From Myxococcota bacterium (GTDB taxonomy: Bacteria; Myxococcota; Kuafuiibacteriia; Kuafuiibacteriales; Kuafuiibacteriaceae): a stretch of 64,000 bases of DNA. This document shows positions 2,539-23,269 of the stretch, one piece after another. The position numbers were made by a program, and so were the translations under genes. The DNA is taken from NCBI GenBank assembly GCA_036337945.1, contig JAYZDF010000062.1:29998-93997 (forward strand), in the 5' to 3' direction. Position 1 is the first letter of the stretch. The number at the start of each line of letters is the position of its first letter. Under the pieces are notes generated by a model. The model saw only the letters and a program-made list of their open reading frames with translations. It ran no database searches and was not told the origin of the DNA.

Positions 2539-4080
2539 GTGTGGTTTCGTGACCCACTTATCGCTCTTGGAGCCCTCGTAGGAGCTATCGTTACGGCACA
2601 GGTCCTTTTCGCGGGGCCATATCTTCCGTATATTGATTGGTCGAATCACTTAGCTTTGATTTCGGTCCTCGCTCATGGGGGAGAATCGGGAGCTCTCGAC
2701 TTCATGACAAGGTCTTGGGCACCGACACCCTATTTATTTTTTTATGGGTTAAGCGCGGGGTTTGCTCAATTTACGACCGTAGACGCAGCAGCCAAATTAT
2801 CACTGGTCGTTTCGGCCTTTGGATACACAATGAGTCTCAGCGCGCTGGCTGCTGCATTAGGCCGAGATCCTCGACAGGGACTCGTAGCACCCCTCGCCTT
2901 TTTTGGCGTGAGTATGGGTTACGGCTTCGCCAGTTTCGTATTTGCCACTCCTTTTTTGTTTTTCACTCTTGCAGCTGCTGAACCCATCTTTCGGGAAAAG
3001 GCCAAACCGCATCATAATTTCCTTTTGGGGCTTTGGCTGATTTGCGCCTACTTGGGACACGCACTCATTTTTTTGACCGCTGCCCTCTTGCTGCTTTCTC
3101 GAGGAATCTTAGGGGTCCTCGTTGAAAAGAGATTTAGGCCCTGGTTTCAAATAGGTCTGGCATCGCTGCCCGCAATTCTTTTGGCGATACCGGCGACATT
3201 TGAACACGTGTCACAACCTTGGACCGAGGCTGGGAGTGCGGCAGAAGGTCCCAAGCAATGGTTTTATTTCGTAAGTATTTCGCAGCATATCGCTGGTTTT
3301 TGGGGGCATTTGCTGGAGCGCGGTTCAAGCGCTCATATTTTGGTGATGAAAAGCGCCGCGGCATTGTGGCTCGTTTGGCTCGTCATTGGTTTTTTTAGGC
3401 CTCGAGCGCGCACAGGTGCGGCGCGCCTCAGCCTTTTGGTTTATGTCGGAGGAATCACTGCTTTATTTGTGGTTGGCCCGAACTCAATGGAATGGCCCTC
3501 TTCCCTTTGGATGATTTATCCCCGCTTTGGGGTGATCGCCGCGATGGCTTTATTTATTCTTCCTCGACCGGGCTTTCAAGGACGCTGGGGCGTCCTATTT
3601 GCTTCTTGCGGAATTGTCTTGGTGATGTGGAATGGCTCCATCAACCGGAGCCATATAGAGAGATTCAATCAATGGGCTAAAAAATACGAACCGGTTCGTA
3701 AACTCATTCCAAAAGGAGCAAGAGTACTCGCTCTCACGGTGCCTCAGGGAAGAGACTTGACTCACAATCATCCGGCACTTGGATCTCTGTATTTTTATCA
3801 CATGGTCGATGGGGCGAGTTATGTGTCTTTCATGTTTGACGCAGCCGCACTTCCTATTCGCCAAATCGATCGAAGAAAGCCAAGAGCACCTTTTTGGAAA
3901 ACGCCGCATGCATTCGATCCGAAGATTCATGGAATTGATTTTGATTACTTGGTGCTACGGGGGAAAGGGCTTGTAAGCCGAACCGATCGCGCGGCGTTAC
4001 ACACCAAGCTCGGCTCCCCCAATGGTTGGACCGTGTACAAAACAAAAAACCCGAGTCCAAGACCGGGAAAACAACGCTGA
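2539..4080 (+). CDS. polytopic integral membrane protein, GTG start, with a C-terminal soluble domain; function unknown
   Basis: 513-aa ORF with many hydrophobic helices (LIALGALVGAIVTAQVLFAG, WLICAYLGHALIFLTAALLLL and others); no recognisable catalytic motif. Confidence 0.5.
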   Translation: MWFRDPLIALGALVGAIVTAQVLFAGPYLPYIDWSNHLALISVLAHGGESGALDFMTRSWAPTPYLFFYGLSAGFAQFTTVDAAAKLSLVVSAFGYTMSLSALAAALGRDPRQGLVAPLAFFGVSMGYGFASFVFATPFLFFTLAAAEPIFREKAKPHHNFLLGLWLICAYLGHALIFLTAALLLLSRGILGVLVEKRFRPWFQIGLASLPAILLAIPATFEHVSQPWTEAGSAAEGPKQWFYFVSISQHIAGFWGHLLERGSSAHILVMKSAAALWLVWLVIGFFRPRARTGAARLSLLVYVGGITALFVVGPNSMEWPSSLWMIYPRFGVIAAMALFILPRPGFQGRWGVLFASCGIVLVMWNGSINRSHIERFNQWAKKYEPVRKLIPKGARVLALTVPQGRDLTHNHPALGSLYFYHMVDGASYVSFMFDAAALPIRQIDRRKPRAPFWKTPHAFDPKIHGIDFDYLVLRGKGLVSRTDRAALHTKLGSPNGWTVYKTKNPSPRPGKQR

Positions 4081-4145
4081 GCGAACAAGTTTTTATTATT
4101 TCGGAAAAAGCAGGAAGCCCTTTGGTAGCGCCAAAGCACTTTGAC

Positions 4146-7016
4146 CTAACGAGCCGCCTTTGCGGACTTCCCGACTTTTTTTGACCGACGAGCTTTTTTG
4201 GCTGGCAGCATCGGCTTGAGAAACTGGCCTGTATGACTTTTTTTGTACGACGCAATTTTCTCAGGTGTTCCTTCAACGAGTATGCGACCACCACCAGAGC
4301 CACCCTCAGGTCCGAGATCAATAATCCAATCCGCGGTTTTGATGACGTCTAAATTATGTTCGATGACGACAACGGTGTTCCCTTGTTCAACGAGACGGTG
4401 AAGAACCTGGAGAAGCTTGGCAACATCATCAAAATGCAAGCCTGTCGTAGGTTCGTCTAAAACAAACAACGTTCGTCCGGTCGACCGTTTTGAAAGTTCT
4501 TTTGCCAGCTTTACGCGTTGAGCTTCGCCGCCTGAGAGCGTCGTGGCTTGTTGTCCTAAGCGAATATAGCCAAGCCCCACATCGACAAGTGTTTTTAGCT
4601 TCTTCTGAATTGCAGGAACCTTAGAGAAGAACTCTAAAGCATCGGCAGCCGTCATTTCGAGAACGTCAGCAATCGAGGCGCCTTTGTATTGAATTTGCAA
4701 CGTCTCACGGTTGTATCGTCGCCCCTTGCAGACCTCGCAGGTTACATAAACGTCTGGTAAAAAGTGCATTTCAATACGCTTGACGCCGTCCCCTTCGCAA
4801 GACTCACAACGACCGCCTTTGACGTTGAAGCTAAACCTTCCGGGCTTATAACCTCGAATTTTTGATTCTGGGAGAGCCGAGAAGATATCGCGAATGTGAC
4901 CGAATACGCCGGTATAAGTGGCTGGATTTGATCGAGGAGTTCGTCCAATCGGTGATTGGTCGATGTCAATCACCTTATCAATGGCGTCCAGGCCTTCGAT
5001 CGACTTATGTTTAGCGGGTTCATCTCGACTTCCATAAATATTTTGGGCAACGGCTTTGTACAATGTCTCATTGACTAAGGTCGATTTACCGCTTCCGGAA
5101 ACGCCGGTGACACAAACCAGAACACCCAAGGGAAACTCAACATCGACGCCCTTCAAATTGTTTCCGCTTGCACCTCGTACCCATATAGACTCTGGTTTTG
5201 GTGTACGACGGACGGTAGGTACTTCAATCTTCTTTCGGCCCGAGAGGTATTGACCGGTTAGAGATTTCTTATCTTTTTCTACTTTTGACGGTTTTCCTGC
5301 GCAAACGACATCACCACCGTGGCGACCTGCTCCAGGACCCATATCGATCACCCAGTCAGACTGACGAATCGTGTCTTCGTCATGTTCGACAACCAACACT
5401 GTATTCCCGAGATCACGAAGTCGCTTCAAAGTAGCAAGTAATCGCTCGTTGTCACGTTGGTGTAAACCAATTGAAGGTTCGTCCAAGATATACAAAACGC
5501 CAACAAGAGAACTGCCTATCTGGGTTGCCAATCGTATTCGCTGGCTTTCACCGCCTGACAAGCTCCCTGCTTTTCGGTCCAAAGTGAGATAGTTGAGACC
5601 CACCGCGCTCAAGAAACCGAGTCTTTCGTTAATTTCTTTGAGGATTCTTTCACCGATTTGTTGTTCCGTCTCGTCTAACGAAAGATTGGCGAAAAACTCG
5701 AGCGCTTTTTCAATCGGAAGTGCGGTGAGTACGTGAATAGGAATGTCGTCGATGGTAACAACTCGAGCCTCAGGCCGAAGTCGTGCGCCATCGCACGAGG
5801 GACAGGTATGAAGTCGCTGATAATCGAGCAATCGTTCACGCACACGATCGCGTTCAGCATCACGCAAACGCCGTTCAAGACTCGGGATCACACCCTCGAA
5901 AGGTTTCTTAAAAGAATATCGACTATCCGCGCCACGATAGGTCACCTTGATTTCTTCTTCACCTGACCCATACATGACAATGTCTCGAAACTTCTTCGGT
6001 AGTTTCTTCCAGGGCTTTGCATAGGATTGTTTGTAGTGATTACATAGAGCGGATAGCACCGGGTTGTACCAGGCCGCTTTTCTCGCCCAAGGGGCAATCA
6101 CACCTTCCGCAAGAGATTTATCAGGGTCAGAAATAATAAGTTTTTCGTCAAAACTGGAAACTTGACCGAGACCACTGCACGTCTGGCAGGCACCTTGGGG
6201 ACTATTGAAAGAGAATGTACGCGGTTCAATTTCCGGCAACGAGATTCCACACTCCAAGCAGGTAAGCTTTTCAGACCAAAGGGCTTCATCCTGAGTATCA
6301 TGGTTAACAATGCGTAGAAGGCCCTCGGATTTTTTTAACGCCAGCTCTACAGAGTCAGCGATTCGCTGACGCGCGGAAGGTTTCACTACGACGCGATCTA
6401 CGACCACGTCGATATCGTGTTTTCGTCGCTTATCGAGTTCGATATTTTCACTGAGCTCCCGCATTTTTCCGTCGACACGGACGCGAGCAAACCCGTCTTT
6501 TCGAAGCTGTAAAAACATTTGTCGATACTCGCCTTTGCGGCCTCTGACCAAAGGCGCCATCAATACGAGTCGGGTTCCTTCCGCCTTAAGCATGAGACGA
6601 TCAATCATTTGTTCTGCAGTTTGTCGGGACACTGGTTTGCCGCATCCCGGGCAGGCAGGACGGCCTACGCGTGCGTAAAGCAAACGCAGGTAGTCATAGA
6701 CTTCGGTCACGGTCGCGACGGTGGATCTTGGGTTTTGGGAGGTTGTTTTTTGTTCGATCGCAATCGCCGGCGACAAACCTTCGATGGCATCAACATCTGG
6801 CTTACTCATTTGGTCGAGGAATTGACGAGCATAGGCGCTGAGCGACTCCACGTATCTGCGCTGTCCTTCAGCGTAAATCGTGTCGAATGCGAGAGTGCTT
6901 TTCCCTGAGCCAGACACGCCGGTCACCACAACTAACTGGTCCCGAGGAATGTCGAGACTCAGGTCTTTGAGATTGTGTTCACGTGCGCCACGAATTTCGA
7001 TGCTTTCGGAGGCCAT
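4146..7016 (-). CDS. uvrA: excinuclease ABC subunit A
   Basis: 956 aa; two ABC ATPase modules with Walker [11 protein letters not shown] twice, zinc-finger Cys pairs, and an N-terminus [55 protein letters not shown] typical of UvrA. Confidence 0.95.
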
Positions 7017-9609: not shown

Positions 9610-10059
9610 ATGACGACTGCACGCGAGTTACTGATTGAAATGCCGACGGAAAAATTTGCGGAGATCATCAACGCTTCACCGAGAAACTTCCGTGAAGAGC
9701 TGTTCCGTGCAGCCGGTGTAAAAGCAAAGTCCGGTATGTTCGCGGTCAAAAGTGCCAGCAAGAGCACGATCAAAGCAAAGAAACTTCATGAAAGCGTAAA
9801 GAAAGGCTTCGAAATAGAAAACGATGTGGGTGAAGAACTCATTCGAAACTACCTGTTTACCCGACGAGACATGCTTGGAGCTGCGTTGACAGCACTGGGC
9901 GTAGAACACGATCACGGTCTAACGGACGAAGACCTAGATACGATTGTAGAAGAACTCTCATCTGAGAAATCAAAAGCACTAAAAGCCGAACTAAGTGAGA
10001 GTCACAGCCCATTTGATGTAGACCTGTATATGCGGTTCATGAATTTTCCGGGAATCTAG
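9610..10059 (+). CDS. hypothetical acidic protein
   Basis: 149-aa ORF downstream of the kinase; no recognisable motifs. Confidence 0.4.
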   Translation: MTTARELLIEMPTEKFAEIINASPRNFREELFRAAGVKAKSGMFAVKSASKSTIKAKKLHESVKKGFEIENDVGEELIRNYLFTRRDMLGAALTALGVEHDHGLTDEDLDTIVEELSSEKSKALKAELSESHSPFDVDLYMRFMNFPGI

Positions 10060-12007: not shown

Positions 12008-12194
12008 ATTAACTTAAACCGGTCACAATCCAAAATACTTTTAGTGGTCTATAACACCTCTGGTAAAGCCCCTCTGCCGTTATTATGTTGCGCCGCAGTG
12101 CTTCGGATACCATTGTTTGTCTCTCAGAATTGGAAAATTAAATATATTAAATAATTAATTTCCTAAAACTCATTTATATAATATTTTATTACCA

Positions 12195-12533
12195 ATGGGT
12201 CGGCCTCGTAAAAATAAAACAAACCAATTTGCAGTCGCTCTTGCAGAGGAAATTGAGCTGCAAAATGAGTCTAGAATTAATTTCAGAATTAGGCAGGAAA
12301 GAGTATTTTTTATGGAAAAAATTTTAAGTCTGACAGAATATATAGAGAAACTTGAAGGTCGAATTGAGAAGCTAGAAAGTCTAATTCAGAAACAACAACG
12401 AAGACCACTTGGGCGATGGGTGCCAGGTGGGCCAGGGCGGCCCCCAAAAGATGCCGCAGAAAGAATCGCCGCTTTCACGAAAAAAAGTGAAATGAACGGA
12501 ACGGAAGTGGAGAACAAAGATGTTGGGGGTTGA
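12195..12533 (+). CDS. small coiled-coil protein with N- and C-terminal AT-hook-like motifs
   Basis: MGRPRKNK at the N-terminus and PGGPGRPPKD near the C-terminus (GRP cores flanked by basic residues), with a central heptad region EYIEKLEGRIEKLESLIQKQQ. Overlaps the next gene by 14 nt. Confidence 0.5.
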   Translation: MGRPRKNKTNQFAVALAEEIELQNESRINFRIRQERVFFMEKILSLTEYIEKLEGRIEKLESLIQKQQRRPLGRWVPGGPGRPPKDAAERIAAFTKKSEMNGTEVENKDVGG

Positions 12534-13647
12534 TGAGTTTGAAGCGTTCGTATTCAAGGCTTTGGAAATCGAACCATCTGAAGAGCTACTTGATTCCTGG
12601 GCGATAAGCTATGAGAAACTTCAGTCTCGGCTCACCCGCAATCGCAAGGAGAGCCTTCAAAAGAATTCAAGCGCGGCGGGCGAGCAGGGCGCGGGCGACA
12701 TTGTCCGCGGTATCGTTCATGCGGGACGAACCTTTCGTATTGCTCAACGTATCTTGAGTATATATCCACCAGCGGCAGGACGAATGCTAGAGGTAGGGGC
12801 AGGCATAGGGCCCTTTGCGTTCGCTGCCCACAGTATGTTCGGCGAGCCGGTTACTATTCTAGAGAAAAATCGACGGATGCTCAGAAATGCTCTGAATCTC
12901 TTCGAAGCGGCTGAAATGGACGTCCCGAAGAGTATTCATGGAGATGCAACCCAGCCCATTACCTACCGTCAGTACTCTGCGGTATTCGCTCCTTTCGTGC
13001 TCAACGAGATTCTTACAAGAGTAGAAAGCGAGGACGTGGTCGGAGCGGGGCGGAAACAGGTTAAGAGTTGGTTGACGGCTTGTCGGAGAGGAGGTCGCCT
13101 TTACATTCTTGAGCCAGGAACCAAGGAAGCGGCTCAAAACCTCCAACGTCTACGGGAGACACTGAAGGACGAATTTCAAATCATTGGGCCGTGTACACAT
13201 GATTCTGAATGCCCAATGCTGAATGGAGAGAAAGATTGGTGTCACGTCACTTGGCGTATAGAGTCGGGGAACTGGGCTCAAAAGATCGCGGAAAGAGCGA
13301 AGCGCAGATTTCAAGACCTTCATTTCTCTTGGCTCATACTAGAGAACAGAAGGCCACAGCAAAGAGAGCCGGACAGCTTGAGAGTCATGGACGTCCGAAG
13401 AAATGATAAGAACAAACTTAGAGTGGTGACCTGCGGGACGAGCGGGCTTGAAACATTGGTCGTTCAAAAGAAGAACCGAGCAACCTACGAGGCATTCGAT
13501 GATTATCAGTCGGGAGATGAGCTACGGGTGACACTCAGTCAGCTAGAGAGGAAAGGGGACGGGTTCAGAGTGACGAGTGAAGAACAGATAAAGCATCGAC
13601 GGTCAGTGATGCAAAGCGTGGCCACTCTTTTGGACAACCAGACCTAG
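12520..13647 (+). CDS. class I SAM-dependent methyltransferase with C-terminal Cys/His cluster (Rsm22-like)
   Basis: Motif I MLEVGAGIGPFAF with acidic residue after beta-2 (VTILEKN); cluster CTHDSECPMLNGEKDWCHV as in Rsm22/METTL17-type methyltransferases. Confidence 0.5.
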   Translation: MLGVDEFEAFVFKALEIEPSEELLDSWAISYEKLQSRLTRNRKESLQKNSSAAGEQGAGDIVRGIVHAGRTFRIAQRILSIYPPAAGRMLEVGAGIGPFAFAAHSMFGEPVTILEKNRRMLRNALNLFEAAEMDVPKSIHGDATQPITYRQYSAVFAPFVLNEILTRVESEDVVGAGRKQVKSWLTACRRGGRLYILEPGTKEAAQNLQRLRETLKDEFQIIGPCTHDSECPMLNGEKDWCHVTWRIESGNWAQKIAERAKRRFQDLHFSWLILENRRPQQREPDSLRVMDVRRNDKNKLRVVTCGTSGLETLVVQKKNRATYEAFDDYQSGDELRVTLSQLERKGDGFRVTSEEQIKHRRSVMQSVATLLDNQT

Positions 13648-13659
13648 GCTAGAGACAAA

Positions 13660-13675
13660 TGTTCCACGTGAAACA
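13660..13675. promoter_or_regulatory. parS: parS centromere-like site, perfect TGTTCCACGTGAAACA
   Basis: Exact match to the Bacillus-type parS consensus TGTTNCACGTGAAACA; the 5' flank AGAGA is shared with the other copies. Confidence 0.8.
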
Positions 13676-13769
13676 TTCACAGATTGATTCACAGGCTTGC
13701 AAAGGAACGCAAAGCGGCTTGTCAGAAGAAAAATCTATCATTTTCGGATCCTTATAATGCAGAGAACAG

Positions 13770-13785
13770 TGTTCCACGTGAAACA
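13770..13785. promoter_or_regulatory. parS: parS centromere-like site, perfect TGTTCCACGTGAAACA
   Basis: Identical 16-mer exactly 110 bp from the first copy. Confidence 0.8.
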
Positions 13786-13794
13786 TTACGTGAG

Positions 13795-13803
13795 TTATCC
13801 ACA
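13795..13803 (+). promoter_or_regulatory. perfect DnaA-box 9-mer TTATCCACA
   Basis: Exact consensus 9-mer 10 bp downstream of parS copy 2, inside a CGTGAG...CTCACG inverted repeat. Confidence 0.35.
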
Positions 13804-13879
13804 GCTCACGAAAACGTGAGCGCTTCAAAGACATGCTTTCTTGGACATATCGAAAGCCTGATCGAAGACGAGAGAAACG

Positions 13880-13895
13880 TATTTCACGTGAAACA
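13880..13895. promoter_or_regulatory. parS: parS-like site TATTTCACGTGAAACA (one mismatch)
   Basis: Third copy exactly 110 bp from the second; the 5' flank AGAGAAACGT is conserved. Confidence 0.6.
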
Positions 13896-14046
13896 TAAAA
13901 GTAAGAACGCCTGGAGATAGGGCAGTGTAGGGTTTGAAAACGCCCGAACCGGATGATTTTAACCTCTTCAGAGACTTATCTAGCAACATGAATGATTAGA
14001 CCGATTCTGATGAATAAAGAACCGAATCTTAGAGTTCTTCTATCTT

Positions 14047-14064
14047 AATGAGAGATCTCTCATT
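14047..14064. repeat. 18-bp perfect palindrome AATGAGAGATCTCTCATT
   Basis: Read directly from the sequence; lies within a 9-bp inverted-repeat-bounded segment (AGTGTAGGG at 13924-13932 / CCCTACACT at 14068-14076). Confidence 0.5.
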
Positions 14065-14561
14065 CTGCCCTACACTTCTCGAGATTTGTAAAATTAGAGA
14101 TGATACATAAGAATAGTCTTTTTACGCTCCTATCCAGCGGGCCTGTCGTGAAGCGATGGGGAGTTTTTTTCTATAAGATTCCACTCAGAAGCAAATCCGT
14201 TTTATTACTCTAGTCGCAACGCTATTTCGGTAATCCAGAATCCGGCTGGGAAACAAAATCATTCCGTGGACTAAGGTACGAAGGTTTCTTCACAGGCTTA
14301 TACGACTTGAAATTTTTAGGCATAACGTTTTTCGAAGTCTTCTGCGAGTCGCGGGCTTACAACTTTGACCATCGAGAAAAGTTATGCTCGGCTTCGGAGG
14401 AAAGGAGAAAATAAACGACTCAATACTTTTTTGGAACCCAACACCTCCTCTAACAGAGCATCTTACCACTCATGATAAGCAAGATTCTCTACTCCGTCGC
14501 CAAACCGCGTTCATATTTCGTTTCGAAGTTTTTTTTTTAATGAAGAAAAGATGACTCGTGA

Positions 14562-14594
14562 ATAAGAACTAAACATCTGTTTAGTTCTTATTCT
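14562..14594. terminator. perfect 15-bp-stem hairpin (AATAAGAACTAAACA tc TGTTTAGTTCTTATT) spanning the stop codon of the HTH gene
   Basis: Perfect inverted repeat with a 2-nt loop; no clear U-tract, so terminator function is uncertain. Confidence 0.3.
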
Positions 14595-15162
14595 TGCCGA
14601 TCCCCAGTATCTGTTCGAGCTCATCTAATTCTCGATGAAGAATTTCTGATTCAGGATCGACCTGTCGCTGTTCTTCAATCAAAGCGGGAAGACGGGAACT
14701 GTTTGGGAGGGGCGCCTCCAGCAGCATCGGCGCATCTGTAGAGCTTTGCAACTTGTCTTGCAAGCTTTCTACCGTTTGTTCAAGTTTCTCGATGTGACTT
14801 TCGAGAGCTTTGAATTCATAGCTGCGGGTTTCAGAAATTTCGCGGATTGCGTCGAGGAAAACTTGACGTTCCTCATGAACCGCCTGAAGAAATGTGGAAC
14901 TCAGCCATTCTAAGTCTTCTCGGCTCAGTGAGCTCCCTTTTTGAGTTCCACGGGCTTTTTCAGCAGAATAATACGAACCTGATTCACGATGCAGCGCTTC
15001 TTCAACGTCAATCGCATCAATGCGAGTCTCCCAGCCAGAGTTTGTCTGCTGAAGACGGCGCCTTGGAAACTCACCTTCCTTAATTCGGCGCTGAAGGGTT
15101 CGTCGAGAAATCCCGAGTCGCTCAGCGACCTCTTGTAAACTGTATGATTCTTTCGTCGTCAT
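14581..15162 (-). CDS. excisionase/MerR-type HTH DNA-binding protein with long C-terminal coiled coil (RacA-like architecture)
   Basis: N-terminus YSLQEVAERLGISRRTLQRRIKEGEFP...W matches HTH_17/MerR-like domains; the remainder is heptad-rich (EKLEQTVESLQDKLQ, ELDELEQIL). Last gene of the jag operon. Confidence 0.6.
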   Translation of the reverse strand: MTTKESYSLQEVAERLGISRRTLQRRIKEGEFPRRRLQQTNSGWETRIDAIDVEEALHRESGSYYSAEKARGTQKGSSLSREDLEWLSSTFLQAVHEERQVFLDAIREISETRSYEFKALESHIEKLEQTVESLQDKLQSSTDAPMLLEAPLPNSSRLPALIEEQRQVDPESEILHRELDELEQILGIGKNKN

Positions 15163-16295: not shown

Positions 16296-17393
16296 TTATG
16301 AATTAGGCTGTGCTTCGGTCTCAGTAGAGTGTTCTGATTCAACAGATGCAGCTGCCGCTACTTCTTCTACCGTCGCTGAAGCCTCTTCTGTCGCTGGGGT
16401 CTCTTCAGCCGCTACCGCTTCTTCTTGATGAGAGTCACGACCGCGACCACCACGACGTCGACGACGGTTATTCTTCTTCGTGCGAAGCGCGTCTGGCACA
16501 ACGTGGATCCGGCGGAATAAACCTTCACCTTCGGACATCGTATCAGCGTCTTCTATCGTCATCACGGTCTGGTGAATGGCGCGACGGTCTGCAGCTGTCA
16601 TGGGTAGAATCGTAATGACTTTACCGAGAGAATTTGCTTTCTCTACAAGCTGCTTCGCGATTGCGACCATTTCTTCGTCAATATTGTCTGGGAGTGACTT
16701 TTGAGGACTTTTCGCTGCTTGCTTTCTGCGCTCTGCTGCTTCAGCTTTCCGCGTTGCGATTCGTTCGGCGACAGATTCTGCTTCAACTACGATATGCTTT
16801 CGATTGTCCGGAAATCGATTTACGATCTTGTTCAACAGGAATTGAAGTGAAGGTAGAGCAGGAGGACGCGTTGACCCGAGGAGATCAGCAACGGCTGTGC
16901 TGTCTTCGGCTTCATTTAGAACCACAACGATTTGTTCTTCTTCATCGCGAACCTCAACAACGACAGGCATACCAAGTTGATTACATAGCTCCTCAGTCAC
17001 CTCTTTTGTTTGCGCCGCTTTCTCGGGAGCTGGCCCGGTAATTCCTGGGACTCGAACTCGTTCTTCTGCCGCTGGTGCGCTTGCTTCACTGGTTTCAGTG
17101 GCGTCATCTGATTCAGCCGCTTCCGCTTTTTTAGGTGCTGGCTTTTTCCTAGAAGTAGCTTTCTTTGGCTTTTTTTCTTTCTCGCCAGAAAGGGTTTCTT
17201 TCTTGGCTTTAGTTTCTTTGGCCGCAACGCTTGCGGAAATGATCACCGGTCGAGCGCCCATACCAAATAAGCCGGCTGACCCTTTATCAACAATGCTAAA
17301 GGAGAGCTCTTCTTTAGTCACTCCAAAATCGGAACACGCAAGTTCAATCGCCTCACGTTCAGTTTCTGCTTCAAATTGTTTTTCTGTTGCCAC
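16296..17393 (-). CDS. jag: RNA-binding protein Jag/KhpB (Jag_N + KH + R3H) with long Lys/Glu-rich linker
   Basis: N-terminal Jag_N (EAIELACSDFGVTKEELSFSIVDKGSAGLFGMGARP), KH-like core (VVVEVRDEEEQIVVVLNEAEDSTAVADLLG) and R3H (RRAIHQTVMTIEDADTMSEGEGLFRRIHV). Confidence 0.8.
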   Translation of the reverse strand: MATEKQFEAETEREAIELACSDFGVTKEELSFSIVDKGSAGLFGMGARPVIISASVAAKETKAKKETLSGEKEKKPKKATSRKKPAPKKAEAAESDDATETSEASAPAAEERVRVPGITGPAPEKAAQTKEVTEELCNQLGMPVVVEVRDEEEQIVVVLNEAEDSTAVADLLGSTRPPALPSLQFLLNKIVNRFPDNRKHIVVEAESVAERIATRKAEAAERRKQAAKSPQKSLPDNIDEEMVAIAKQLVEKANSLGKVITILPMTAADRRAIHQTVMTIEDADTMSEGEGLFRRIHVVPDALRTKKNNRRRRRGGRGRDSHQEEAVAAEETPATEEASATVEEVAAAASVESEHSTETEAQPNS

Positions 17394-17654: not shown

Positions 17655-19358
17655 TTAGGAAGACAGCGCGGCAGCGGCCGGGGGAGTACCAGCATCTTTG
17701 TTGATGAAGTGCTGCTGGACGATGGTCAGGACGGTGTTTACAAAAATGTAAAAGCACAGTCCGGCCGGTAAGGCGATCATCATGGCTCCGAACATGATCG
17801 GCATGAAATACATCATCATTTTCTGTTGCGCCGCATCCATAGTGGTAGGAGTCATCTTTTGCTGAAGGAACATGACAACCACCAAAATAGCGGGAAGAAT
17901 CCAGTAGGGGTCTCGAGAGGTAAGGTCTGGAATCCATAGAAACGACTCCTGGTACAGGTCAATCGATACCCAGAGAGCCCGGTATAGGGCAAACCAGATA
18001 GGCATCTGAATGAGCATCGGTACGCAGCCACTGGCTGGGCTTACATTATGATCCCGATACAATTTCATCATTTCTTCGCTCTGGCGCTGTCGATCGTCCG
18101 GAAACTTTTCCTTGAGAGCGTCGATCTGAGGCTTCAACTTCGACATCGCCCGCATCGAACGACCGCTGCGTTGGTTGAGCGGAAAGAGTGCAAGCTTCAC
18201 CAAAACGGTTAGGCCAAGGATAGCGATCCCCCAAGAACCACTCAGTCCATAGATAAGAGCCAAAATAGCGAGTAGCCCCTCACACAAAATCGCCAAATTG
18301 AGACCCATGATGGTGTAATCCACCGCAGATTCGAGCTGAGCTTCACTTCGAGTCAAAAGCTTCGGTTTTTTCACACCGAGATACGCGGTGAATTTATGTC
18401 GCTTCTCCTCGCCTGGCCGCAAGGTGCTTTCCGCCATCACTAATGCCGCGCGGGCTTGCTGGCCATTCGCAGTCAAACGGCACTCTGCGGGATCATCATC
18501 ACGATGAATAATCGCAGATAGAAAATACTGACGATCCATCCCGACCCACTTCACATTTTCTGAAAACTTCTCAGATTCGCTGACCAATTCTTTTTGGGCT
18601 TCTCGCTCGACAGAGCCATCAGTGAAGCACGCTCCGTTGAGATGATCGGGAGGAGGCATAAACATCATTCCGCCTTCTTCCATCACTTCGGTCAGTTTGG
18701 AGGAGGTTGAAATCTCCATCACGTGTCGCTGAGGTTGATCGCTATTGTTGCGCACTGTAACGGCCATTTCTATTTCGAACGAATCAGGAGAGATATCGTA
18801 GATCCGTTCAACCTCGATCCCTTCATCCGTCTTATATGAATAGATCACCTGGTTTTCGCGAGGGCGACGAACCTCGTAGACTGGTCGAAGAGGAAACCGG
18901 AAAGTCGTTCCTTCTAAAAATTGAATTCCAGCCATTTGATTTCTTAGATCCGGGGCATCCAAGTTCGGTTGCGCTAGTCGAATCGGATCTTCGGTTGGCT
19001 GATTGTCCGCATCTCGCTCCTTAAACGAAGGGAGCTCGAACAATTGAATTCCACCGCCTACATTCGTCAGCTGTAGCGAGTAAGGTATTTTTTCATCCCC
19101 CGAATCTACAGAACCCGAAAATTTTTCAATCGACTCAGGAATAACTTTTCGCGGCGCTTTCGCAACCGTTGTAGTCGTCACCTCGCCTGCCATTGTGGCG
19201 GTCGTTGCTGTTTGAACATTTTCAGATTTCTCCGTCGTAGCCACAGAAGCGTTTTTCTTCGGTGGCTTTTGGGGAAAGAGATATGTCCAAGTCGTTAGGA
19301 CGATCACCGATAGTATCGTCGCACGTAGAATCCGTTGATTGTTCTCTGATTCTTCCAT
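17655..19358 (-). CDS. yidC: membrane protein insertase YidC
   Basis: 567 aa; N-terminal TM, large periplasmic domain and conserved C-terminal five-TM core (PMLIQMPIWFALY, MMYFMPIMFGAMM). Confidence 0.9.
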   Translation of the reverse strand: MEESENNQRILRATILSVIVLTTWTYLFPQKPPKKNASVATTEKSENVQTATTATMAGEVTTTTVAKAPRKVIPESIEKFSGSVDSGDEKIPYSLQLTNVGGGIQLFELPSFKERDADNQPTEDPIRLAQPNLDAPDLRNQMAGIQFLEGTTFRFPLRPVYEVRRPRENQVIYSYKTDEGIEVERIYDISPDSFEIEMAVTVRNNSDQPQRHVMEISTSSKLTEVMEEGGMMFMPPPDHLNGACFTDGSVEREAQKELVSESEKFSENVKWVGMDRQYFLSAIIHRDDDPAECRLTANGQQARAALVMAESTLRPGEEKRHKFTAYLGVKKPKLLTRSEAQLESAVDYTIMGLNLAILCEGLLAILALIYGLSGSWGIAILGLTVLVKLALFPLNQRSGRSMRAMSKLKPQIDALKEKFPDDRQRQSEEMMKLYRDHNVSPASGCVPMLIQMPIWFALYRALWVSIDLYQESFLWIPDLTSRDPYWILPAILVVVMFLQQKMTPTTMDAAQQKMMMYFMPIMFGAMMIALPAGLCFYIFVNTVLTIVQQHFINKDAGTPPAAAALSS

Positions 19359-19641: not shown

Positions 19642-20070
19642 TTACGTTGTGCCTTTACGTTGCTTTTGGACTCGTTGCTCGGCCTTCAGGATCGCAGGGA
19701 TCAGATCGACTGCAACATCATCCAAGCCGTTCAATGCGCGCTGAGACGCGTGTGGCTTGGCTATCACTACAAAGTCAACTGTTGATAAGTGATGCTGCAA
19801 TCTGCGAAAACATTCTCGTAACATTCTACGAACACGGCTTCTTATCACAGCATTTCCAACTCGTTTGCTTACTACGCAACCAAGACGCGGTCTTGTTTGT
19901 TTTTCGGAAATAAACGCAACGACGGTAAAGCAGCCGGTGTGAACGCGAAGGCCTTTTTTTTGTATCGTTAGAAATTCGCGCCGTTGGCGAACTCGAGCCG
20001 CTTTTGGAAAAGCACCACTCTTAGACAATAGAGCGAGGGTCGACTTAGGAGCGTGATCTGATGGCGTCAT
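19642..20070 (-). CDS. rnpA: ribonuclease P protein component (true start likely internal to the ORF)
   Basis: FPKAARVRQRREFLTIQKKG...GCVVSKRVGNAVIRSRVRRMLRE resembles the RnpA basic RNR motif; position between rpmH and yidD. Confidence 0.8.
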   Translation of the reverse strand: MTPSDHAPKSTLALLSKSGAFPKAARVRQRREFLTIQKKGLRVHTGCFTVVAFISEKQTRPRLGCVVSKRVGNAVIRSRVRRMLRECFRRLQHHLSTVDFVVIAKPHASQRALNGLDDVAVDLIPAILKAEQRVQKQRKGTT

Positions 20071-20283: not shown

Positions 20284-20464
20284 AACTATCTCCGTTCAGA
20301 GCTGGCTGTATCGCCATAGCGCGCTTAGCCTGTCAAGCGATCGCTTCACACTAATGTGTGAGAATCTGATCTTTTTTTTCATTTTTGGTTTGATTCATAT
20401 TCACAATTTCCGTAGTTGCGGCAGCTCCTGGCTCAGGCTACTTTGCCAGACTCCCGCATACGCT

Positions 20465-21892
20465 ATGAATGCAGATGCGGGAACAAAAAGGGGAATATAT
20501 CAGGTGGAATTGGCCGAAAATCAGCCCAATTGGATCCAACTTAAAGACGCTCTTGCTCGTCGACTTAGCCCACAGGTTTGGGCCACATGGATCAATCAAA
20601 TCAAGTGCCTGGAAGATAATGGAAAAACCCTCAGGATCGGGCTACCTGACACATTCAGTCTGAATTGGGTGAAAGATCACTATCGTCACGTCATTGAAGA
20701 AGAACTTCAAAGTATCGGAAGCATCGACCTTCTCTTCGACCTTCACGAAGTAGAAAAGGAGAAAGAACCCGAACCTTCTGAAGCCCCAAGCAAAGTCGAA
20801 GAAGCCTTACCTATTCCCGAACCAGTAGAAGAAGCACGACCGACATCTTTTCGAAGTAATATTCCAACGCCTTCTCGTCCCCAACTGAACCCTCGATACA
20901 TTTTTTCCAATTTTGTTGTCGGGTCCTCGAACGAACTCGCGTGGTCTGCGGCCCAGGCTATCGCCGAAAACGACCGCCCACCATACAATCCGCTGGTCAT
21001 CGTGGGTGGAGTAGGGTTGGGTAAGACCCATCTTTTGCACGCCATTGGGCACATTTTCCAAAAGAAACGCCCTCAGGCTAAAATTCAGCTCAAAACCAGT
21101 GAAGCCTTCATCAATGATGTCGTTACCGGAATCCAAGAGCATCGTATGCCGCAGGTCCGCTCTCGATATCGCAACTGTGACCTTCTTCTTATCGACGATA
21201 TTCAGTTTATTTCTGGAAAAGGACACTGTCAGGAAGAGTTCTTCCATACTTTCAACGCCCTCTACGACGCTCAGAAACAAATTGTCGTTACCTCGGATCG
21301 TATGCCGCATGAAATCGCAGACATAGAGCAGAGAGTCCGTTCGCGTTTCGCGTGGGGGCTCATTGCCGACCTAAAACTCCCTGAATTGGAAACACGAATC
21401 GCAATCATCCAACAAAAAGCCGCCAACGAAGGGCTTGAACTTGATGAAAGCGTAGCAAAATTCCTGGCGCAGTCCGTTCGGTCCAACACAAGAGAGCTGG
21501 AAGGCTGTATAAACCGCGTTCACGCCATCGCTTCTCTGCGAAAAACCCCTATTACTGTGAGTCTCACCAAAGAGGTCCTGCAGGGTATTATTAGTGACAA
21601 AAGCCAGGCCCTTACCTGCGACAGTATTGTTCGCGCCGTTGCTGCACACTTCGAGATCCGAATATCTGAACTGAAATCGACAAAACGCGCTCGAAATATA
21701 GCGTTTCCCCGGCAAATCGCGATGTATTTATGCCGAAATCATACCAGCGCGTCTTATCCAGACATTGGAAACGCCCTTGGCGGCAAAGATCACAGCACAG
21801 CCATCAACGCCGTGAAGAAGATTACTGAAAAAATTACCGAACCCGATGTGCGAAACCACATCGAAGAAATCGAAAGACAATTGCTCGATTAG
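20465..21892 (+). CDS. dnaA: chromosomal replication initiator DnaA (start taken at MNADAG rather than the upstream ORF start 20354)
   Basis: AAA+ Walker A GGVGLGKTHLLHAIG, sensor motifs, C-terminal DNA-binding domain (KRARNIAFPRQIAMYLCR...STAINAVKKI). Confidence 0.95.
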   Translation: MNADAGTKRGIYQVELAENQPNWIQLKDALARRLSPQVWATWINQIKCLEDNGKTLRIGLPDTFSLNWVKDHYRHVIEEELQSIGSIDLLFDLHEVEKEKEPEPSEAPSKVEEALPIPEPVEEARPTSFRSNIPTPSRPQLNPRYIFSNFVVGSSNELAWSAAQAIAENDRPPYNPLVIVGGVGLGKTHLLHAIGHIFQKKRPQAKIQLKTSEAFINDVVTGIQEHRMPQVRSRYRNCDLLLIDDIQFISGKGHCQEEFFHTFNALYDAQKQIVVTSDRMPHEIADIEQRVRSRFAWGLIADLKLPELETRIAIIQQKAANEGLELDESVAKFLAQSVRSNTRELEGCINRVHAIASLRKTPITVSLTKEVLQGIISDKSQALTCDSIVRAVAAHFEIRISELKSTKRARNIAFPRQIAMYLCRNHTSASYPDIGNALGGKDHSTAINAVKKITEKITEPDVRNHIEEIERQLLD

Positions 21893-22159
21893 AGCCACAG
21901 AGTATTGAAGAGAATTAACCACATGATGTTGTGTGTAACAGCCAAAAGAGCGTCTATAACTTGTGTACAGAGTTGTGATATGCGTGTGGAAAAGAAACGT
22001 GACGAGTTGTACACAATTTATCCAACTTTAATTCACAGTGAAGGGTTGTCTATGATCGAGAATCAAAACAAGGATTTACAAAAGTTATCCACAATTCACA
22101 GCCCCTACTACTACGATCAGTTTATTTAAAATACAGAACAGACTAGGACACAGAAAAAT
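21893..22159. other. oriC: putative oriC: dnaA-dnaN spacer with DnaA boxes and an AT-rich unwinding region
   Basis: Perfect TTATCCACA at 22083-22091; one- or two-mismatch boxes TTAACCACA, TGTGGAAAA and TTATCCAAC; AATTCACAG repeated twice; inverted repeat TTGTGTACA...TGTACACAA; AT-rich tract just upstream of dnaN. Confidence 0.6.
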
Positions 22160-23269
22160 ATGGAATTTAGCATCCCAGTCCAAGAACTCGCAAAGGCTCT
22201 CCAACGCGTTCAAGGAATCATCGAAAAGAAAACCACCATGCCAATTTTGGCAAACGTACTTCTTGAAGCATCGAAGGATGGTTTTTTAAGTGTAGCAGCT
22301 ACCAATCTTGAGATTGGCCTCACTGGAAAATACGCCTGTGACGTTGCTCAAGAAGGTTCGATTACTCTTTCGGGTCGTTCACTGTTCGATATTGTCCGTG
22401 CGCTTCCTAAGAAAATCGCAACACTAAAAAAAGTGAATAATGATTGGGTAGAAATTAGTTGTGGGAAAGTAAACTATCGTGTGGTCGGGATGTCTGCAGA
22501 GGGATATCCAACCTTACCAAGCTTTAGTGATGTTGAATATTTTTCACTGAGCAGTGATGCGTTCAAAGCGATGATTGATAAAACGCTCTACTCAGTTTGT
22601 ACGGACGAAACACGATACAATCTAACCGGAATTTACTGTGAAGCCTTGGCGGATGGAGATGGCATTCGTATGGTCTCAACGGATGGTCATAGACTATCGA
22701 TTGTCGAACAAAATACAAAAGATCAACCGCTTATAAAGAAAGGTATTATCATCCCTAGAAAAGGGATGATCGAATTAAGACGTCTTTTGGATGATGGTGA
22801 AAGTACCGGACAACTAGGCTTCAAAGACAATAGTGCTATCTTCGAAAAAGATGGACTCACACTCACTATGCAGCTCATTGAAGGCGAGTTTCCAGATTAT
22901 AAGCAGGTTATTCCTCAATCTTGCACTAAGAAAGTTATCGTCAATCGTGAGCTCTTCCAGTCTGCTCTCAAGAGAACTTCACTACTTTCACCAGATAAAG
23001 CCCAAGGAGTTCGACTTGACCTCTCAAATGGCAATTTAGCGCTCTCTGCTCATAATCCCGACGTTGGTGAAGCAAAAGAAGATATCGAAATTTCTTATGA
23101 TGGTGAAGAACTAAAAATTGGGTTCAACTACCGCTATATTTCTGATGTTTTACATGCACTCAACCACGAAGAAGTTGAATTACAACTCTCCGACTCTCTT
23201 TCTCCAGGTGTCATCATTGGCGCTGGTACTGAAGACTATCGCGCCATAATTATGCCGATGCGATTATAA
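22160..23269 (+). CDS. dnaN: DNA polymerase III beta sliding clamp
   Basis: 369 aa; MEFSIPVQELAKALQRVQGIIEKKTTMPILANVLLEA N-terminus; three-domain clamp length; C-terminal IIMPMRL. Confidence 0.95.
   Translation: MEFSIPVQELAKALQRVQGIIEKKTTMPILANVLLEASKDGFLSVAATNLEIGLTGKYACDVAQEGSITLSGRSLFDIVRALPKKIATLKKVNNDWVEISCGKVNYRVVGMSAEGYPTLPSFSDVEYFSLSSDAFKAMIDKTLYSVCTDETRYNLTGIYCEALADGDGIRMVSTDGHRLSIVEQNTKDQPLIKKGIIIPRKGMIELRRLLDDGESTGQLGFKDNSAIFEKDGLTLTMQLIEGEFPDYKQVIPQSCTKKVIVNRELFQSALKRTSLLSPDKAQGVRLDLSNGNLALSAHNPDVGEAKEDIEISYDGEELKIGFNYRYISDVLHALNHEEVELQLSDSLSPGVIIGAGTEDYRAIIMPMRL

Follow-up and report, generated by a model that had tools for sequence, protein, structure and literature searches.

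AT-hook use in the Myxococcota is shown by CarD of Myxococcus xanthus, in which an HMGA-like AT-hook domain with four RGRP hooks is combined with an RNAP-interacting CarD_TRCF domain. The minor groove of A/T DNA is also read in bacteria by the 'GRPR' arm that lies ahead of a helix in proteins of the Hin/Gin type, and the arm of Hin is part of a helix-turn-helix domain. AT-hooks are defined by a GRP core, and the PRGRP core sits in the minor groove of CGAATTAATTCG, which, with AATTAATT as its core, was co-crystallised with an HMGA1 AT-hook (PMC11354804). Moreover, AT-hooks and extended AT-hooks are able to bind RNA, some of them better than DNA (PMC11354804). WhiB7 is an autoregulatory AT-hook protein, and an AT motif lies upstream of its own -35 element (PMC3905903). 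The reader of H-NS and Lsr2 is an 'AT-hook-like' Q/RGR loop, and H-NS-like proteins have, in their N-terminal domain, one site for dimerisation and another for oligomerisation (PMC6936261).

In this study, a window of 64 kb (the whole stretch of DNA that was analysed) was found to contain a small gene that lies directly behind an extreme AT island and encodes a protein with two hook-like motifs around a predicted coiled coil. The gene and its product have the following features:

12195-12533, + strand: small gene of 112 aa (NCBI locus VYC39_09340, annotated there with 73 aa), defined by its open reading frame and by the family alignment
12198-12218, + strand: N-terminal basic arm G-R-P-R-K-N-K (codons 2-8), at least 90% conserved and non-helical in the AlphaFold2 (AF2) model
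12219-12398, + strand: single long helix (codons 9-68, AF2 pLDDT 96-98) with flexible ends, the predicted dimerisation coiled coil
12411-12476, + strand: invariant block G-R-W-V-P-G-G-P-G-R-P-P-K-D-A-A-E-R-I-A-A-F (codons 73-94), with 15 invariant columns and the GRP core

The 112-aa protein begins with MGRPRKNK, carries PGRPPKD at residues 80-86, both as described in the initial annotation, and contains no cysteine. The 73-aa NCBI model is probably truncated, with a start 39 codons late and the conserved N-terminal arm lost. The two best-conserved parts of the protein are the two basic/Pro hook motifs that flank the predicted coiled coil. In the family alignment, M1, R3, P4 and K6 are each conserved to at least 90%, and the arm follows the pattern [GAPS]-R-P-R-K-[ND]-[RK]. 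Two GRP cores had originally been proposed; the C-terminal one, G81-R82-P83, is invariant in 47 sequences, as is R3-P4, but the N-terminal Gly (G2) is present in only 84% of the members and is otherwise A, P or S, which leaves R-P-R-K as the invariant core of the arm. The basic residues at the hooks are R3, R5, K6 and K/R8 at the N-terminus and only R74 and K85, followed by D86, at the C-terminus. The C-terminal block has the family form G-[RK]-WVPGGPGRPPKDA..R..AF, and its synonymous sites are saturated while its residues are fixed. This block spans about 22 residues, far more than a generic AT-hook, and such strong invariance hints at contacts with one particular macromolecule instead of unspecific binding in the groove. 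The leucine-zipper-like coiled coil of the initial annotation agrees with the predicted helix, in which the hydrophobic residues form an i+4 stripe at 16-32 and then a canonical heptad core at 43-60 (I/V alternating with L), and the hydrophobic 3-4-3-4-3 pattern at 43, 46, 50, 53, 57 and 60 is kept family-wide. Behind the helix, AF2 predicted a loop at residues 69-86 (pLDDT 56-60) and then one low-confidence helix. Many relatives add K/R-rich tails, some of them H1-like, and the window's copy has no basic tail; in one relative, P0075, two tandem copies of the C-terminal motif stand behind poly-Arg runs. Tandem motif copies and K/R-rich tails would be typical of nucleic-acid-binding modules. 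P0075 is encoded on a contig of 1166 nt. By the pattern of its conservation, the small ORF is a real, strongly constrained gene.

The family consists of about 66 clusters, and an exhaustive HMM search of 1.84 billion representative proteins yielded 15 of its members and no link to known domains. All members come from metagenomes of uncultured Myxococcota/"Deltaproteobacteria", most of them in genomes of 62-72% GC, and searches of viral contigs and plasmids yielded no relatives. A match in 'Thermoanaerobaculia' (L006) was rejected as a probable chimeric assembly rather than another phylum; on this 2.6-kb contig, a HlyD-like ORF runs on into the final third of a P0060-like protein. The family is narrow and unnamed, without a Pfam or NCBIfam model, and scans of the small protein against both collections at normal thresholds returned nothing. 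When all PDB sequences were searched with a profile, the only matches were coiled coils of a generic or designed kind, and a Foldseek comparison of the AF2 model with the PDB gave 0 matches. Profile searches for AT-hook kinship had been suggested at the outset: AT_hook was the most frequent weak Pfam match (17 of 47 members at E <= 10, best 0.063) and the sole recurrent Pfam signal in the family, the rest being coiled-coil noise (SlyX, PspB, KfrA_N), but for the window protein it reached only 7.8 bits (E = 5) in the low-stringency scan, below the Pfam cut-off of 17.4.

The N-terminal GRPRK of the small protein is identical to part of an HMGA1 hook. Like the HMGA-type AT-hook (PF02178), the small protein has a short Pro-flanked G-R-P core in a disordered segment with basic residues nearby and would carry several hooks per particle (four per predicted dimer), and target-like DNA is at hand, since AATTAATT occurs in the window's island at 12153-12160. 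However, the arginine pair of R-G-R-P is missing (M-G-R-P at the N-terminus and G-P-G-R-P-P in the block), the C-terminal core is embedded in the 22-residue block, together with W, V and the helix that comes next, and the hooks are joined by a predicted coiled coil, whereas those of HMGA are joined by a disordered chain. With WhiB7, an actinobacterial Wbl activator with a C-terminal AT-hook, the likeness is one of promoter geometry only and not of membership: an A/T run abuts the -35 element upstream of the small gene, and in the window a 28-bp A/T run extends over the -35 position and the sequence ahead of it. WhiB7 has an Fe-S cluster domain with four Cys and is a monomer bound to sigma-A region 4, whereas the small protein lacks Cys and is a predicted coiled-coil dimer, and neither a Whib Pfam match nor sequence similarity to WhiB7 was found for it. 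H-NS, Lsr2, MvaT and Rok are of similar size (12-22 kDa), the predicted layout of the small protein resembles their combination of an N-terminal oligomerisation module and a C-terminal minor-groove reader of AT-rich DNA, and Lsr2 likewise serves high-GC bacteria. In contrast to these proteins, the small protein has no predicted folded C-terminal domain and may lack a second oligomerisation site, its motif is P-G-R-P instead of Q/R-G-R, its distribution is narrow, and it has an extra N-terminal arm; Histone_HNS, Lsr2, MvaT and Rok gave no match with the window protein and were not among the families listed for the 47 members at E <= 10, nor did they appear in the PDB profile and Foldseek searches. 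A Pfam scan found neither a CarD_TRCF nor a helix-turn-helix domain in the small protein.

The region upstream of the small gene contains the following elements:

12092-12108, + strand: palindrome-like block TTGCGCYGCAGTGCWT, about 90-100 nt upstream of the ATG and kept among close relatives (alignment A3, six marine-clade upstream regions)
12127-12194, + strand: extreme AT island of 13.2% GC, the proposed promoter and very short leader of an operon of the small gene and an Rsm22-like gene
12134-12161, + strand: 28-bp A/T run that holds the conserved block AAATATATTAAATAATTAATT, in the UP-element position and a candidate minor-groove target
12177-12182, + strand: consensus -10 hexamer TATAAT, 16 nt past TTAATT and 12 nt ahead of the ATG (12195)

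A composition scan of the 64 kb confirmed the initial claim of an extreme island, which proved to be by far the lowest-GC stretch of the window: its 68 bp have 13.2% GC against the window average of 47.8%. The lowest-GC 68-mer (12124-12191, 11.8% GC) coincides with the island almost entirely, and the next non-overlapping 68-mer, at 23.5% GC, lies inside the small gene. Two pure A/T runs, one of 28 bp and one of 20 bp (12172-12191), make up the island; they are the longest in the 64 kb, where the runner-up has 15 bp; 30-mers with at most 3 G/C are confined to the island block, and the island 60-mer has z = -6 against all 60-mers of the window. This composition is far beyond chance. Within the 28-bp run, which also contains the above AATTAATT, a weak -35-like TTAATT lies at 12155-12160; TATAAT, contained in TATATAAT at 12175-12182, stands exactly 12 nt ahead of the ATG, in agreement with the initial annotation. 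Its distance from the ATG predicts a leader of about 5 nt without a Shine-Dalgarno sequence, and this lack is unremarkable because SD-less starts are common in the genome (about 60% of the long ORFs in the window). A sigma-70 scan found no + strand promoter at the island, and the consensus promoter scores of 8-12 had no advantage over shuffled sequences (9.4 +/- 1.5), so it is conservation that carries the promoter call.

Several other readings of this region were considered. An oriC unwinding element was rejected: the DnaA boxes cluster at 21754-22093, around the dnaA-dnaN spacer about 10 kb off, no DnaA box flanks the island, and the register of the island to the start codon is fixed. An unusually unstructured mRNA start was unconvincing (-4.6 kcal/mol versus -7.1 +/- 2.4 for other genes), and a search for known RNAs at the island or its flanks with Rfam at gathering thresholds gave 0 matches in the whole window. 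For the palindrome-like block at 12092-12108, a terminator of the upstream gene was discarded, since its folding was inconsistent, with no consistent hairpin, and the terminator scan found none; the block may be another regulator's site or a remnant terminator.

The AT-rich island is also kept in five further loci (L008, L011, L013, L014 and L015), and a phylogenetic footprint is seen across the six marine-clade loci, where the island has 7-15% GC. The arrangement TTAATT-16-TATWAT-12-ATG is free of indels in these six loci, while the distal intergenic sequence diverges, and the alignment of the six upstream regions showed that AAATATATTAAATAATTAATT in the A/T block is conserved in sequence, beyond mere composition. 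The extreme island is limited to this narrow marine clade, being missing from the GC-rich clades and not found in other clades of similar genome GC (49-50%). The GC-rich and intermediate homologues have a common layout instead, which consists of a T-tract and TTGAC(C), about 17 nt, and (TG)nTACC. In 13 of 14 GC-rich loci, the -35-like TTGAC upstream of the small gene is directly adjoined by an A/T run of 6 bp or more; such runs number 1-9 per GC-rich locus, and L002, L016 and L023 have none besides the one at the -35 element. Furthermore, 11 of 19 loci have a -10 element that ends no more than 19 nt ahead of the ATG, compared with 25% of shuffles. A short leader, initially claimed for the gene in the window, is predicted for most homologous loci, and its geometry is conserved among the relatives. 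Recognition of such an AT tract does not explain the family-wide invariance of the motifs, because the extreme island is confined to one clade, and the suggestion that the protein is matched to 'exactly this kind' of tract is weakened accordingly.

The small gene is followed by a methyltransferase-like gene and parS-type sites:

12509-12512, + strand: GGAG Shine-Dalgarno sequence of the Rsm22-like gene, 7 nt before its ATG and within the 3' end of the small ORF
12520-13647, + strand: Rsm22-family SAM methyltransferase-like gene (PF09243), overlapping the small ORF by 14 nt
13660-13675, 13770-13785 and 13880-13895 (span 13660-13895), no strand assigned: three parS-type palindromes with 110-bp spacing

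The overlap with an Rsm22-like gene noted initially is present, and the Pfam match of its product is strong (E = 3.3e-19, 69.8 bits versus a cut-off of 23, profile positions 36-274 of 275); NCBI names the product 'small ribosomal subunit Rsm22 family protein', and a word-indexed search for it returned 8 close relatives. Wherever a locus is long enough for a judgement, the small gene adjoins the Rsm22-like gene (35-89% identity). Translational coupling, as proposed earlier, is consistent with the close relatives, in which the 14-nt overlap and the internal SD are conserved; the GC-rich relatives have gaps of 15-120 nt instead, and L007, L018 and L019 have the small gene in the opposite orientation, head-to-head with the Rsm22-like gene, so co-transcription does not hold for all loci and coupling is dispensable. 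Either placement, operon-first or divergent, would be usual for a local regulator. Synteny extends over the whole region between the kinase gene and yidC, and adjacency to the Rsm22-like gene is for this reason weak evidence by itself. In the relatives, the parS sites are invariably located 3' of the Rsm22-like gene, which is positional context; the small gene is about 1.1 kb from the parS cluster, in a conserved position, and about 8 kb from dnaA.

The interpretation of the initial annotation was therefore partly supported, and a modified form of it is preferred here. The small protein probably binds AT-rich DNA, perhaps its own promoter, as far as its sequence indicates; the fuller proposal of a dimeric minor-groove binder that is transcribed from, and possibly regulates, an AT-tract promoter is put forward tentatively, at slightly less than an even chance. 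According to this proposal, the AT island, most likely the promoter of the small gene, would be the core promoter region of a two-gene operon of the small protein and the Rsm22-like methyltransferase, in which an A/T-only block fills the UP-element and weak -35 position, TATAAT follows 16 nt on and the ATG 12 nt further, and the mRNA would have a leader of about 5 nt that lacks a Shine-Dalgarno sequence. The 112-aa product would be a small nucleic-acid-binding protein whose 60-residue helix probably forms a parallel coiled-coil dimer. Such a dimer would present two flexible R-P-R-K arms and two C-terminal Pro/Gly loops with G-R-P, that is, four hooks of the minor-groove type. The protein may bind short A/T tracts, including the one abutting its own -35 element, and would in this way adjust both its own expression and the expression of the methyltransferase gene next to it, in the manner of WhiB7; in the marine clade, the -35 tract would have been expanded into the extreme 68-bp island. 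The analysis itself established the composition and its conservation, the gene family, the invariance of the motifs, the helix prediction and the synteny; in this scheme, we infer the promoter assignment, the transcription start, dimerisation, the binding of DNA rather than RNA, and autoregulation.

The T-tract beside the -35 element could, however, be simply an intrinsic UP-like promoter feature. The island may be just a strong promoter that melts easily, has an AU-rich region at the start and is not bound by the protein, which would act elsewhere, and the extreme composition may reflect clade-specific drift or optimisation of the family-wide 'T-tract + -35' promoter; this reading is possible but distinctly less probable. 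UP-like A/T blocks are known intrinsic promoter elements, a T-tract/-35 plus -10 is an ordinary layout, the extreme island occurs in one narrow clade only, and no comparable second A/T tract exists in the 64 kb to define a regulon. Nevertheless, no other promoter or intergenic region of the window comes near the island in composition, and AAATATATTAAATAATTAATT is conserved at the sequence level. It is also striking that the one gene encoding conserved GRP and RPRK motifs owns the sole extreme A/T tract, and that, in the GC-rich relatives, this gene has beside it one of the very few A/T runs of the locus.

The invariance of the 22-residue block would also fit a protein-protein or protein-RNA interface, and AT-hooks can bind RNA (PMC11354804). 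The small protein might be a partner or adaptor of the Rsm22-like methyltransferase, with the arm and the GRP loop binding rRNA or a ribosomal precursor, or with the block docking on the enzyme, and with the proportion of the two proteins fixed by translational coupling. Despite the adjacency in all judgeable loci and the overlap with internal SD in the close relatives, we regard this role as unlikely, in view of the divergent orientation in three loci, the gaps in the GC-rich relatives and the general synteny of the region. An architectural role at the origin or centromere, or a role as a general nucleoid-associated or xenogeneic-silencer-like protein (a functional H-NS/Lsr2 analogue) of the Myxococcota, in which the protein would bridge or coat A/T-rich DNA, possibly with ParB at parS, appears more doubtful still. 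The size of about 100-115 aa and the order of a putatively oligomerising N-terminal helix, a flexible region and a C-terminal G-R-P followed by a helix parallel the H-NS-like proteins (PMC6936261), most members occur in genomes of 62-72% GC, in which A/T tracts are scarce and frequently of foreign origin, H1-like basic tails are present in some relatives, and the position near parS and dnaA is conserved. Against this stand the lack of sequence or profile similarity to H-NS, Lsr2, MvaT and Rok, of a predicted folded C-terminal domain, of a basic tail in the window's copy and of copies on plasmids or viral contigs; moreover, the family is tiny and phylogenetically narrow, and the link to parS is only positional, within a generally syntenic region. 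There is a slight chance that the family serves chromatin or the centromere region and is specific to the Myxococcota, its members forming coiled-coil dimers (or higher oligomers) whose four minor-groove hooks recognise the A/T tracts that are rare in high-GC genomes; in this capacity the protein would be a fifth functional analogue, of independent origin, beside H-NS, Lsr2, MvaT and Rok, or an organiser of the parS/origin region together with ParB. If this were true, the WVPGGPGRPPKDA..R..AF block would be a new type of DNA-reading motif.

If the preferred reading, a dimeric minor-groove binder at an AT-tract promoter, is true, the small protein would represent a new and very compact design among bacterial minor-groove readers, in which a dimeric coiled coil bears hook motifs of two kinds. 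A second independent case of the WhiB7 style would be provided as well, with an AT-hook acting at an A/T tract beside its own -35 element, in the Myxococcota. The scope of these conclusions is that of a small and narrow family from uncultured organisms, and the statements on function are inferred. Practically, the public annotation probably places the start 39 codons late, and a Pfam or NCBIfam model for the family is lacking. The 110-bp phasing of the parS sites was also considered as a tandem DNA repeat, for which TRF found nothing. The small protein, the Rsm22-like methyltransferase, the phased parS sites and an HTH/coiled-coil protein form a conserved origin-proximal gene block, which is marked by the family and could guide studies of chromosome organisation in this uncultured lineage.

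The small gene and its upstream AT island are located in the replication-origin region, and the features along this part of the window are as follows.

12177-12182, + strand: TATAAT, exactly 12 nt 5' of the ATG at 12195
12195-12533, + strand: small ORF of 112 aa, starting MGRPRKNK and containing PGRPPKD
12520-13647, + strand: Rsm22-like gene (Pfam Rsm22, E = 3.3e-19)
13660-13675, 13770-13785 and 13880-13895: three parS-type palindromes, directly 3' of the Rsm22-like gene
16296-17393, - strand: jag
17655-19358, - strand: yidC
19642-20070, - strand: rnpA
20354-21892, + strand: dnaA, then dnaN and recF, also on the + strand

The initial annotation had pointed to an extreme AT island with a TATAAT close to the start codon, and both were borne out. 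The island (12127-12194) has 13.2% GC over 68 bp in a window averaging 47.8%, a composition that is beyond chance by far. The minimum for any 68-mer in the window is 11.8% GC (12124-12191); the lowest 68-mer that does not overlap it has 23.5%. The two longest pure A/T runs in the 64 kb also belong to the island, with 28 bp (12134-12161) and 20 bp (12172-12191), and the third-longest run in the window measures 15 bp. Moreover, AATTAATT occurs in the island; this sequence forms the core of the DNA with which an HMGA1 hook was co-crystallised (PMC11354804). A palindrome-like block, TTGCGCYGCAGTGCWT (12092-12108), lies approximately 90-100 nt 5' of the ATG and is kept in the marine-clade upstream regions, in which it formed no consistent hairpin.

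Sequence comparison shows that the small gene is real and a member of a narrow, unnamed family; its MGRPRKNK start and its PGRPPKD motif are as previously claimed. A word-indexed search of 5.8 billion proteins retrieved 66 clusters of relatives of approximately 100-115 aa, all unnamed or labelled 'hypothetical' and derived from Myxococcota/'Deltaproteobacteria' MAGs and metagenomes. When 1.84 billion representatives were searched exhaustively with a profile, just 15 proteins at 50% identity came up and no known domain was linked to the family; no Pfam or NCBIfam model matched the protein, and searches of plasmids and viral contigs found no relatives. In the alignment of 47 family sequences, the N-terminus was M-[GAPS]-R-P-R-K-[ND]-[RK], with at least 90% conservation of R3, P4 and K6, the middle region was variable, and an invariant block was present (G73-[RK]-W-V-P-G-G-P-G-R-P-P-K-D-A-x-x-R-x-x-A-F94). 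Among 20 distinct DNA versions of this block the residues were fixed and every synonymous codon was in use, which indicated that selection acts on the protein. The NCBI model VYC39_09340 (family member P0006) comprises 73 aa from Met40 and drops codons 1-39 (12195-12311), so that half of the helix is missing together with the conserved arm at the N-terminus; the N-terminus conserved in all homologues supports the 112-aa form.

Two family loci were irregular. In a Thermoanaerobaculia MAG contig (L006, JBGARM010000467.1, 2000-2652), an HlyD-like frame runs straight into the C-terminal third of a member resembling protein P0060; chimeric assembly or contamination of the bin is the probable cause, rather than a real fusion or a second phylum. 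At locus L007 (4001-4292), the family member matches in two reading frames (4001-4060 and 4095-4292), which indicates a frameshift that either stems from a sequencing error or marks a pseudogene.

By definition, the GRP core of an AT-hook (in the ideal case P-R-G-R-P) sits in the minor groove and has basic residues on its flanks (PMC11354804). The AT-hook-like cores noticed earlier were found at both ends of the protein, with the C-terminal G-R-P invariant and the N-terminal one present in 84% of members; the Arg preceding G-R-P is missing from both motifs. In profile searches, Pfam AT_hook was the commonest weak match (17 of 47 members) but never reached threshold (best E = 0.063), and the window protein scored 7.8 bits against a cut-off of 17.4. 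The protein also recalls the 'Q/RGR' loop of H-NS/Lsr2 (PMC6936261), a resemblance with no detectable homology behind it. For these reasons it is called AT-hook-like only: by sequence it appears AT-hook-like in design, and it failed the membership tests for the AT-hook, H-NS/Lsr2 and WhiB7 families. A 227-aa relative (P0075, from a 1166-nt Logan contig of SRR5262248) is without the N-terminal arm; it carries two tandem copies of the invariant motif, in the form (R)n-T-R-G-x-W-R-P-G-G-P-G-R-P-P-x-A-V-A-E-K-M-A with a poly-Arg run before each. These copies, together with the K/R-rich, H1-like tails of many GC-rich relatives, favour a modular motif that may bind nucleic acid. Small bacterial proteins with AT-hook-like minor-groove motifs beside an A/T-tract promoter are an already known kind; the present family is undescribed, and its design, which combines a coiled coil bearing two distinct hook motifs with a 22-residue invariant block, is unusual.

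The AlphaFold2 model, obtained with the family alignment (mean pLDDT 79.6), was divided as follows.

Residues 1-8: non-helical arm
Residues 9-68: single helix, pLDDT 96-98
Residues 69-86: loop with the invariant GRP, pLDDT 56-60
Residues 87-108: low-confidence helix

In the family, conserved hydrophobic positions 43/46/50/53/57/60, with I/V and L in turn, form a canonical heptad core, preceded on its N-terminal side by an i+4 stripe at 16/20/24/28/32. Because of the heptad pattern, a parallel dimer is predicted, which would present two N-terminal arms and two GRP loops. The PDB sequence search returned generic coiled coils only, and Foldseek gave zero matches to the model.

The upstream regions were compared across 29 loci, several of which are close relatives of each other. 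In the window's own marine clade (L008 to L015; proteins 75-89% identical, genomes 43-48% GC), the 60-70 bp 5' of the ATG had 7-15% GC, among the lowest 0.02-0.3% of windows per contig; in the clade alignment the distal intergenic DNA had diverged, blocks AAATATATTAAATAATTAATT and TTTATATAATATTTTAT were retained, and the register TTAATT-16-TATWAT-12-ATG was kept without indels. The intermediate clade (L025-L029; genomes approximately 49-50% GC) had no extreme island and a local minimum of 28-33% GC, and the upstream regions of GC-rich homologues (genomes 62-72% GC) had 37-67% GC. Since these loci are without it, the extreme island is clade-specific, and genome composition does not explain it.

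A promoter-like layout nevertheless recurred family-wide, with a T-tract abutting TTGAC(C), a spacer of approximately 17 nt and a -10 of (TG)nTACC or similar. Of 14 GC-rich loci, 13 had an A/T run of 6 bp or longer adjoining the -35 upstream of the gene, although only 1-9 such runs occur there per 1-8 kb locus. The best -35/-10 pair ended at most 19 nt before the ATG in 11 of 19 loci versus 25% of shuffles, and the consensus scores were at background level. A sigma-70 scan of the island reported no + strand promoter because the -35 is weak. Given these scores and the empty scan, it is conservation of sequence and register, and not the strength of the consensus, that supports the putative promoter and short leader. 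Starts lacking an SD are common in the source genome, and the mRNA start of the small gene was not unusually unstructured.

The Rsm22-like identity of the downstream gene, as proposed initially, agrees with its Pfam match, and the 14-nt overlap of the two ORFs also held; a GGAG lies 7 nt 5' of the Rsm22-like ATG, within the small ORF. The same overlap was found in L008-L012 and L014, in L013 and L015 the tblastn matches to the two genes share a few nt, and gaps of 15-120 nt separate the genes in other clades. The recurrent gene order was kinase, 149-aa protein, CarboxypepD_reg protein, small gene, Rsm22-like gene, parS sites, HTH/coiled-coil protein, methyltransferase, jag and yidC; without exception, the parS sites lie 3' of the Rsm22-like gene. 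The two genes adjoin in all loci long enough to judge and are co-directional in most; in L007, L018 and L019 they are head-to-head, with the small gene alone inverted. The 149-aa protein (9610-10059), whose gene lies between those for the Ser/Thr kinase and the small protein, is conserved and syntenic family-wide (41-95% identity) and matched no Pfam or NCBIfam model.

We favour, at somewhat less than even confidence, the reading that the island is a core promoter whose product is a dimeric A/T-tract minor-groove reader feeding back on itself and the methyltransferase gene. The core promoter would consist of an UP-like A/T block, a weak -35 and a consensus -10, with a putative operon leader of approximately 5 nt. 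The R-P-R-K arms and G-R-P loops of the coiled-coil dimer would read short A/T tracts via the minor groove, and one target may be the tract at the gene's own -35, which would have expanded to the 68-bp island in the marine clade. A possible analogy is WhiB7, which uses its AT-hook to bind an AT motif immediately 5' of the -35 in its own promoter (PMC3905903), and the gene position, first in the operon or divergent, would suit a local regulator. That the island is a strong promoter only, where the small protein does not bind, seems rather unlikely.

An improbable reading makes the protein a partner of the Rsm22-like enzyme, through RNA binding or docking. It is favoured by the adjacency and overlap of the genes, by how long the invariant block is and by the RNA binding known for AT-hooks; the loci with head-to-head genes and the synteny of the region in general speak against it. 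Less probable still is an architectural role in the nucleoid, in the manner of a xenogeneic silencer or in the centromere region: the layout, high-GC hosts, basic tails and nearby parS favour such a role, but homology and a folded DNA-binding domain are lacking and the distribution is narrow. The initial annotation thus stood as observation and in part as interpretation; the functional points are all inferred, and the family is a narrow one from uncultured organisms, which limits the scope of the finding.

The parS-type sequences comprise TGTTCCACGTGAAACA twice and TATTTCACGTGAAACA once, with 0.15 expected by chance, and are spaced by exactly 110 bp; phasing is alike in relatives (111 and 113 bp in L015; 214, 212 and 111 bp in L008). 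Since TRF detected no tandem repeat, the phasing concerns the sites alone and not the DNA in between. The 930-bp stretch containing them (13648-14580; approximately 1.1 kb in L015) held no convincing ORF or Rfam match. A perfect DnaA box, TTATCCACA (13795-13803), lies between the second and third parS within an inverted repeat GTGAG...CTCAC; the window has just one more perfect box, which falls in the dnaA-dnaN spacer (22085-22093). If up to one mismatch is allowed, DnaA boxes occur around this spacer at 21754, 21915, 21985 and 22085, beside an AT-rich stretch (22106-22173, 29% GC), and 21754-22173 is likely oriC; because of this clustering, the island was rejected as the oriC unwinding element. 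Adjoining the parS cluster, a 193-aa protein (14581-15162, - strand) carries a helix-turn-helix of HTH_17/excisionase type at its N-terminus and then a coiled-coil-like region, an architecture that recalls the origin-anchoring RacA with a very weak NCBIfam match (E = 0.06), and its gene is syntenic in L001, L008, L015 and L020.
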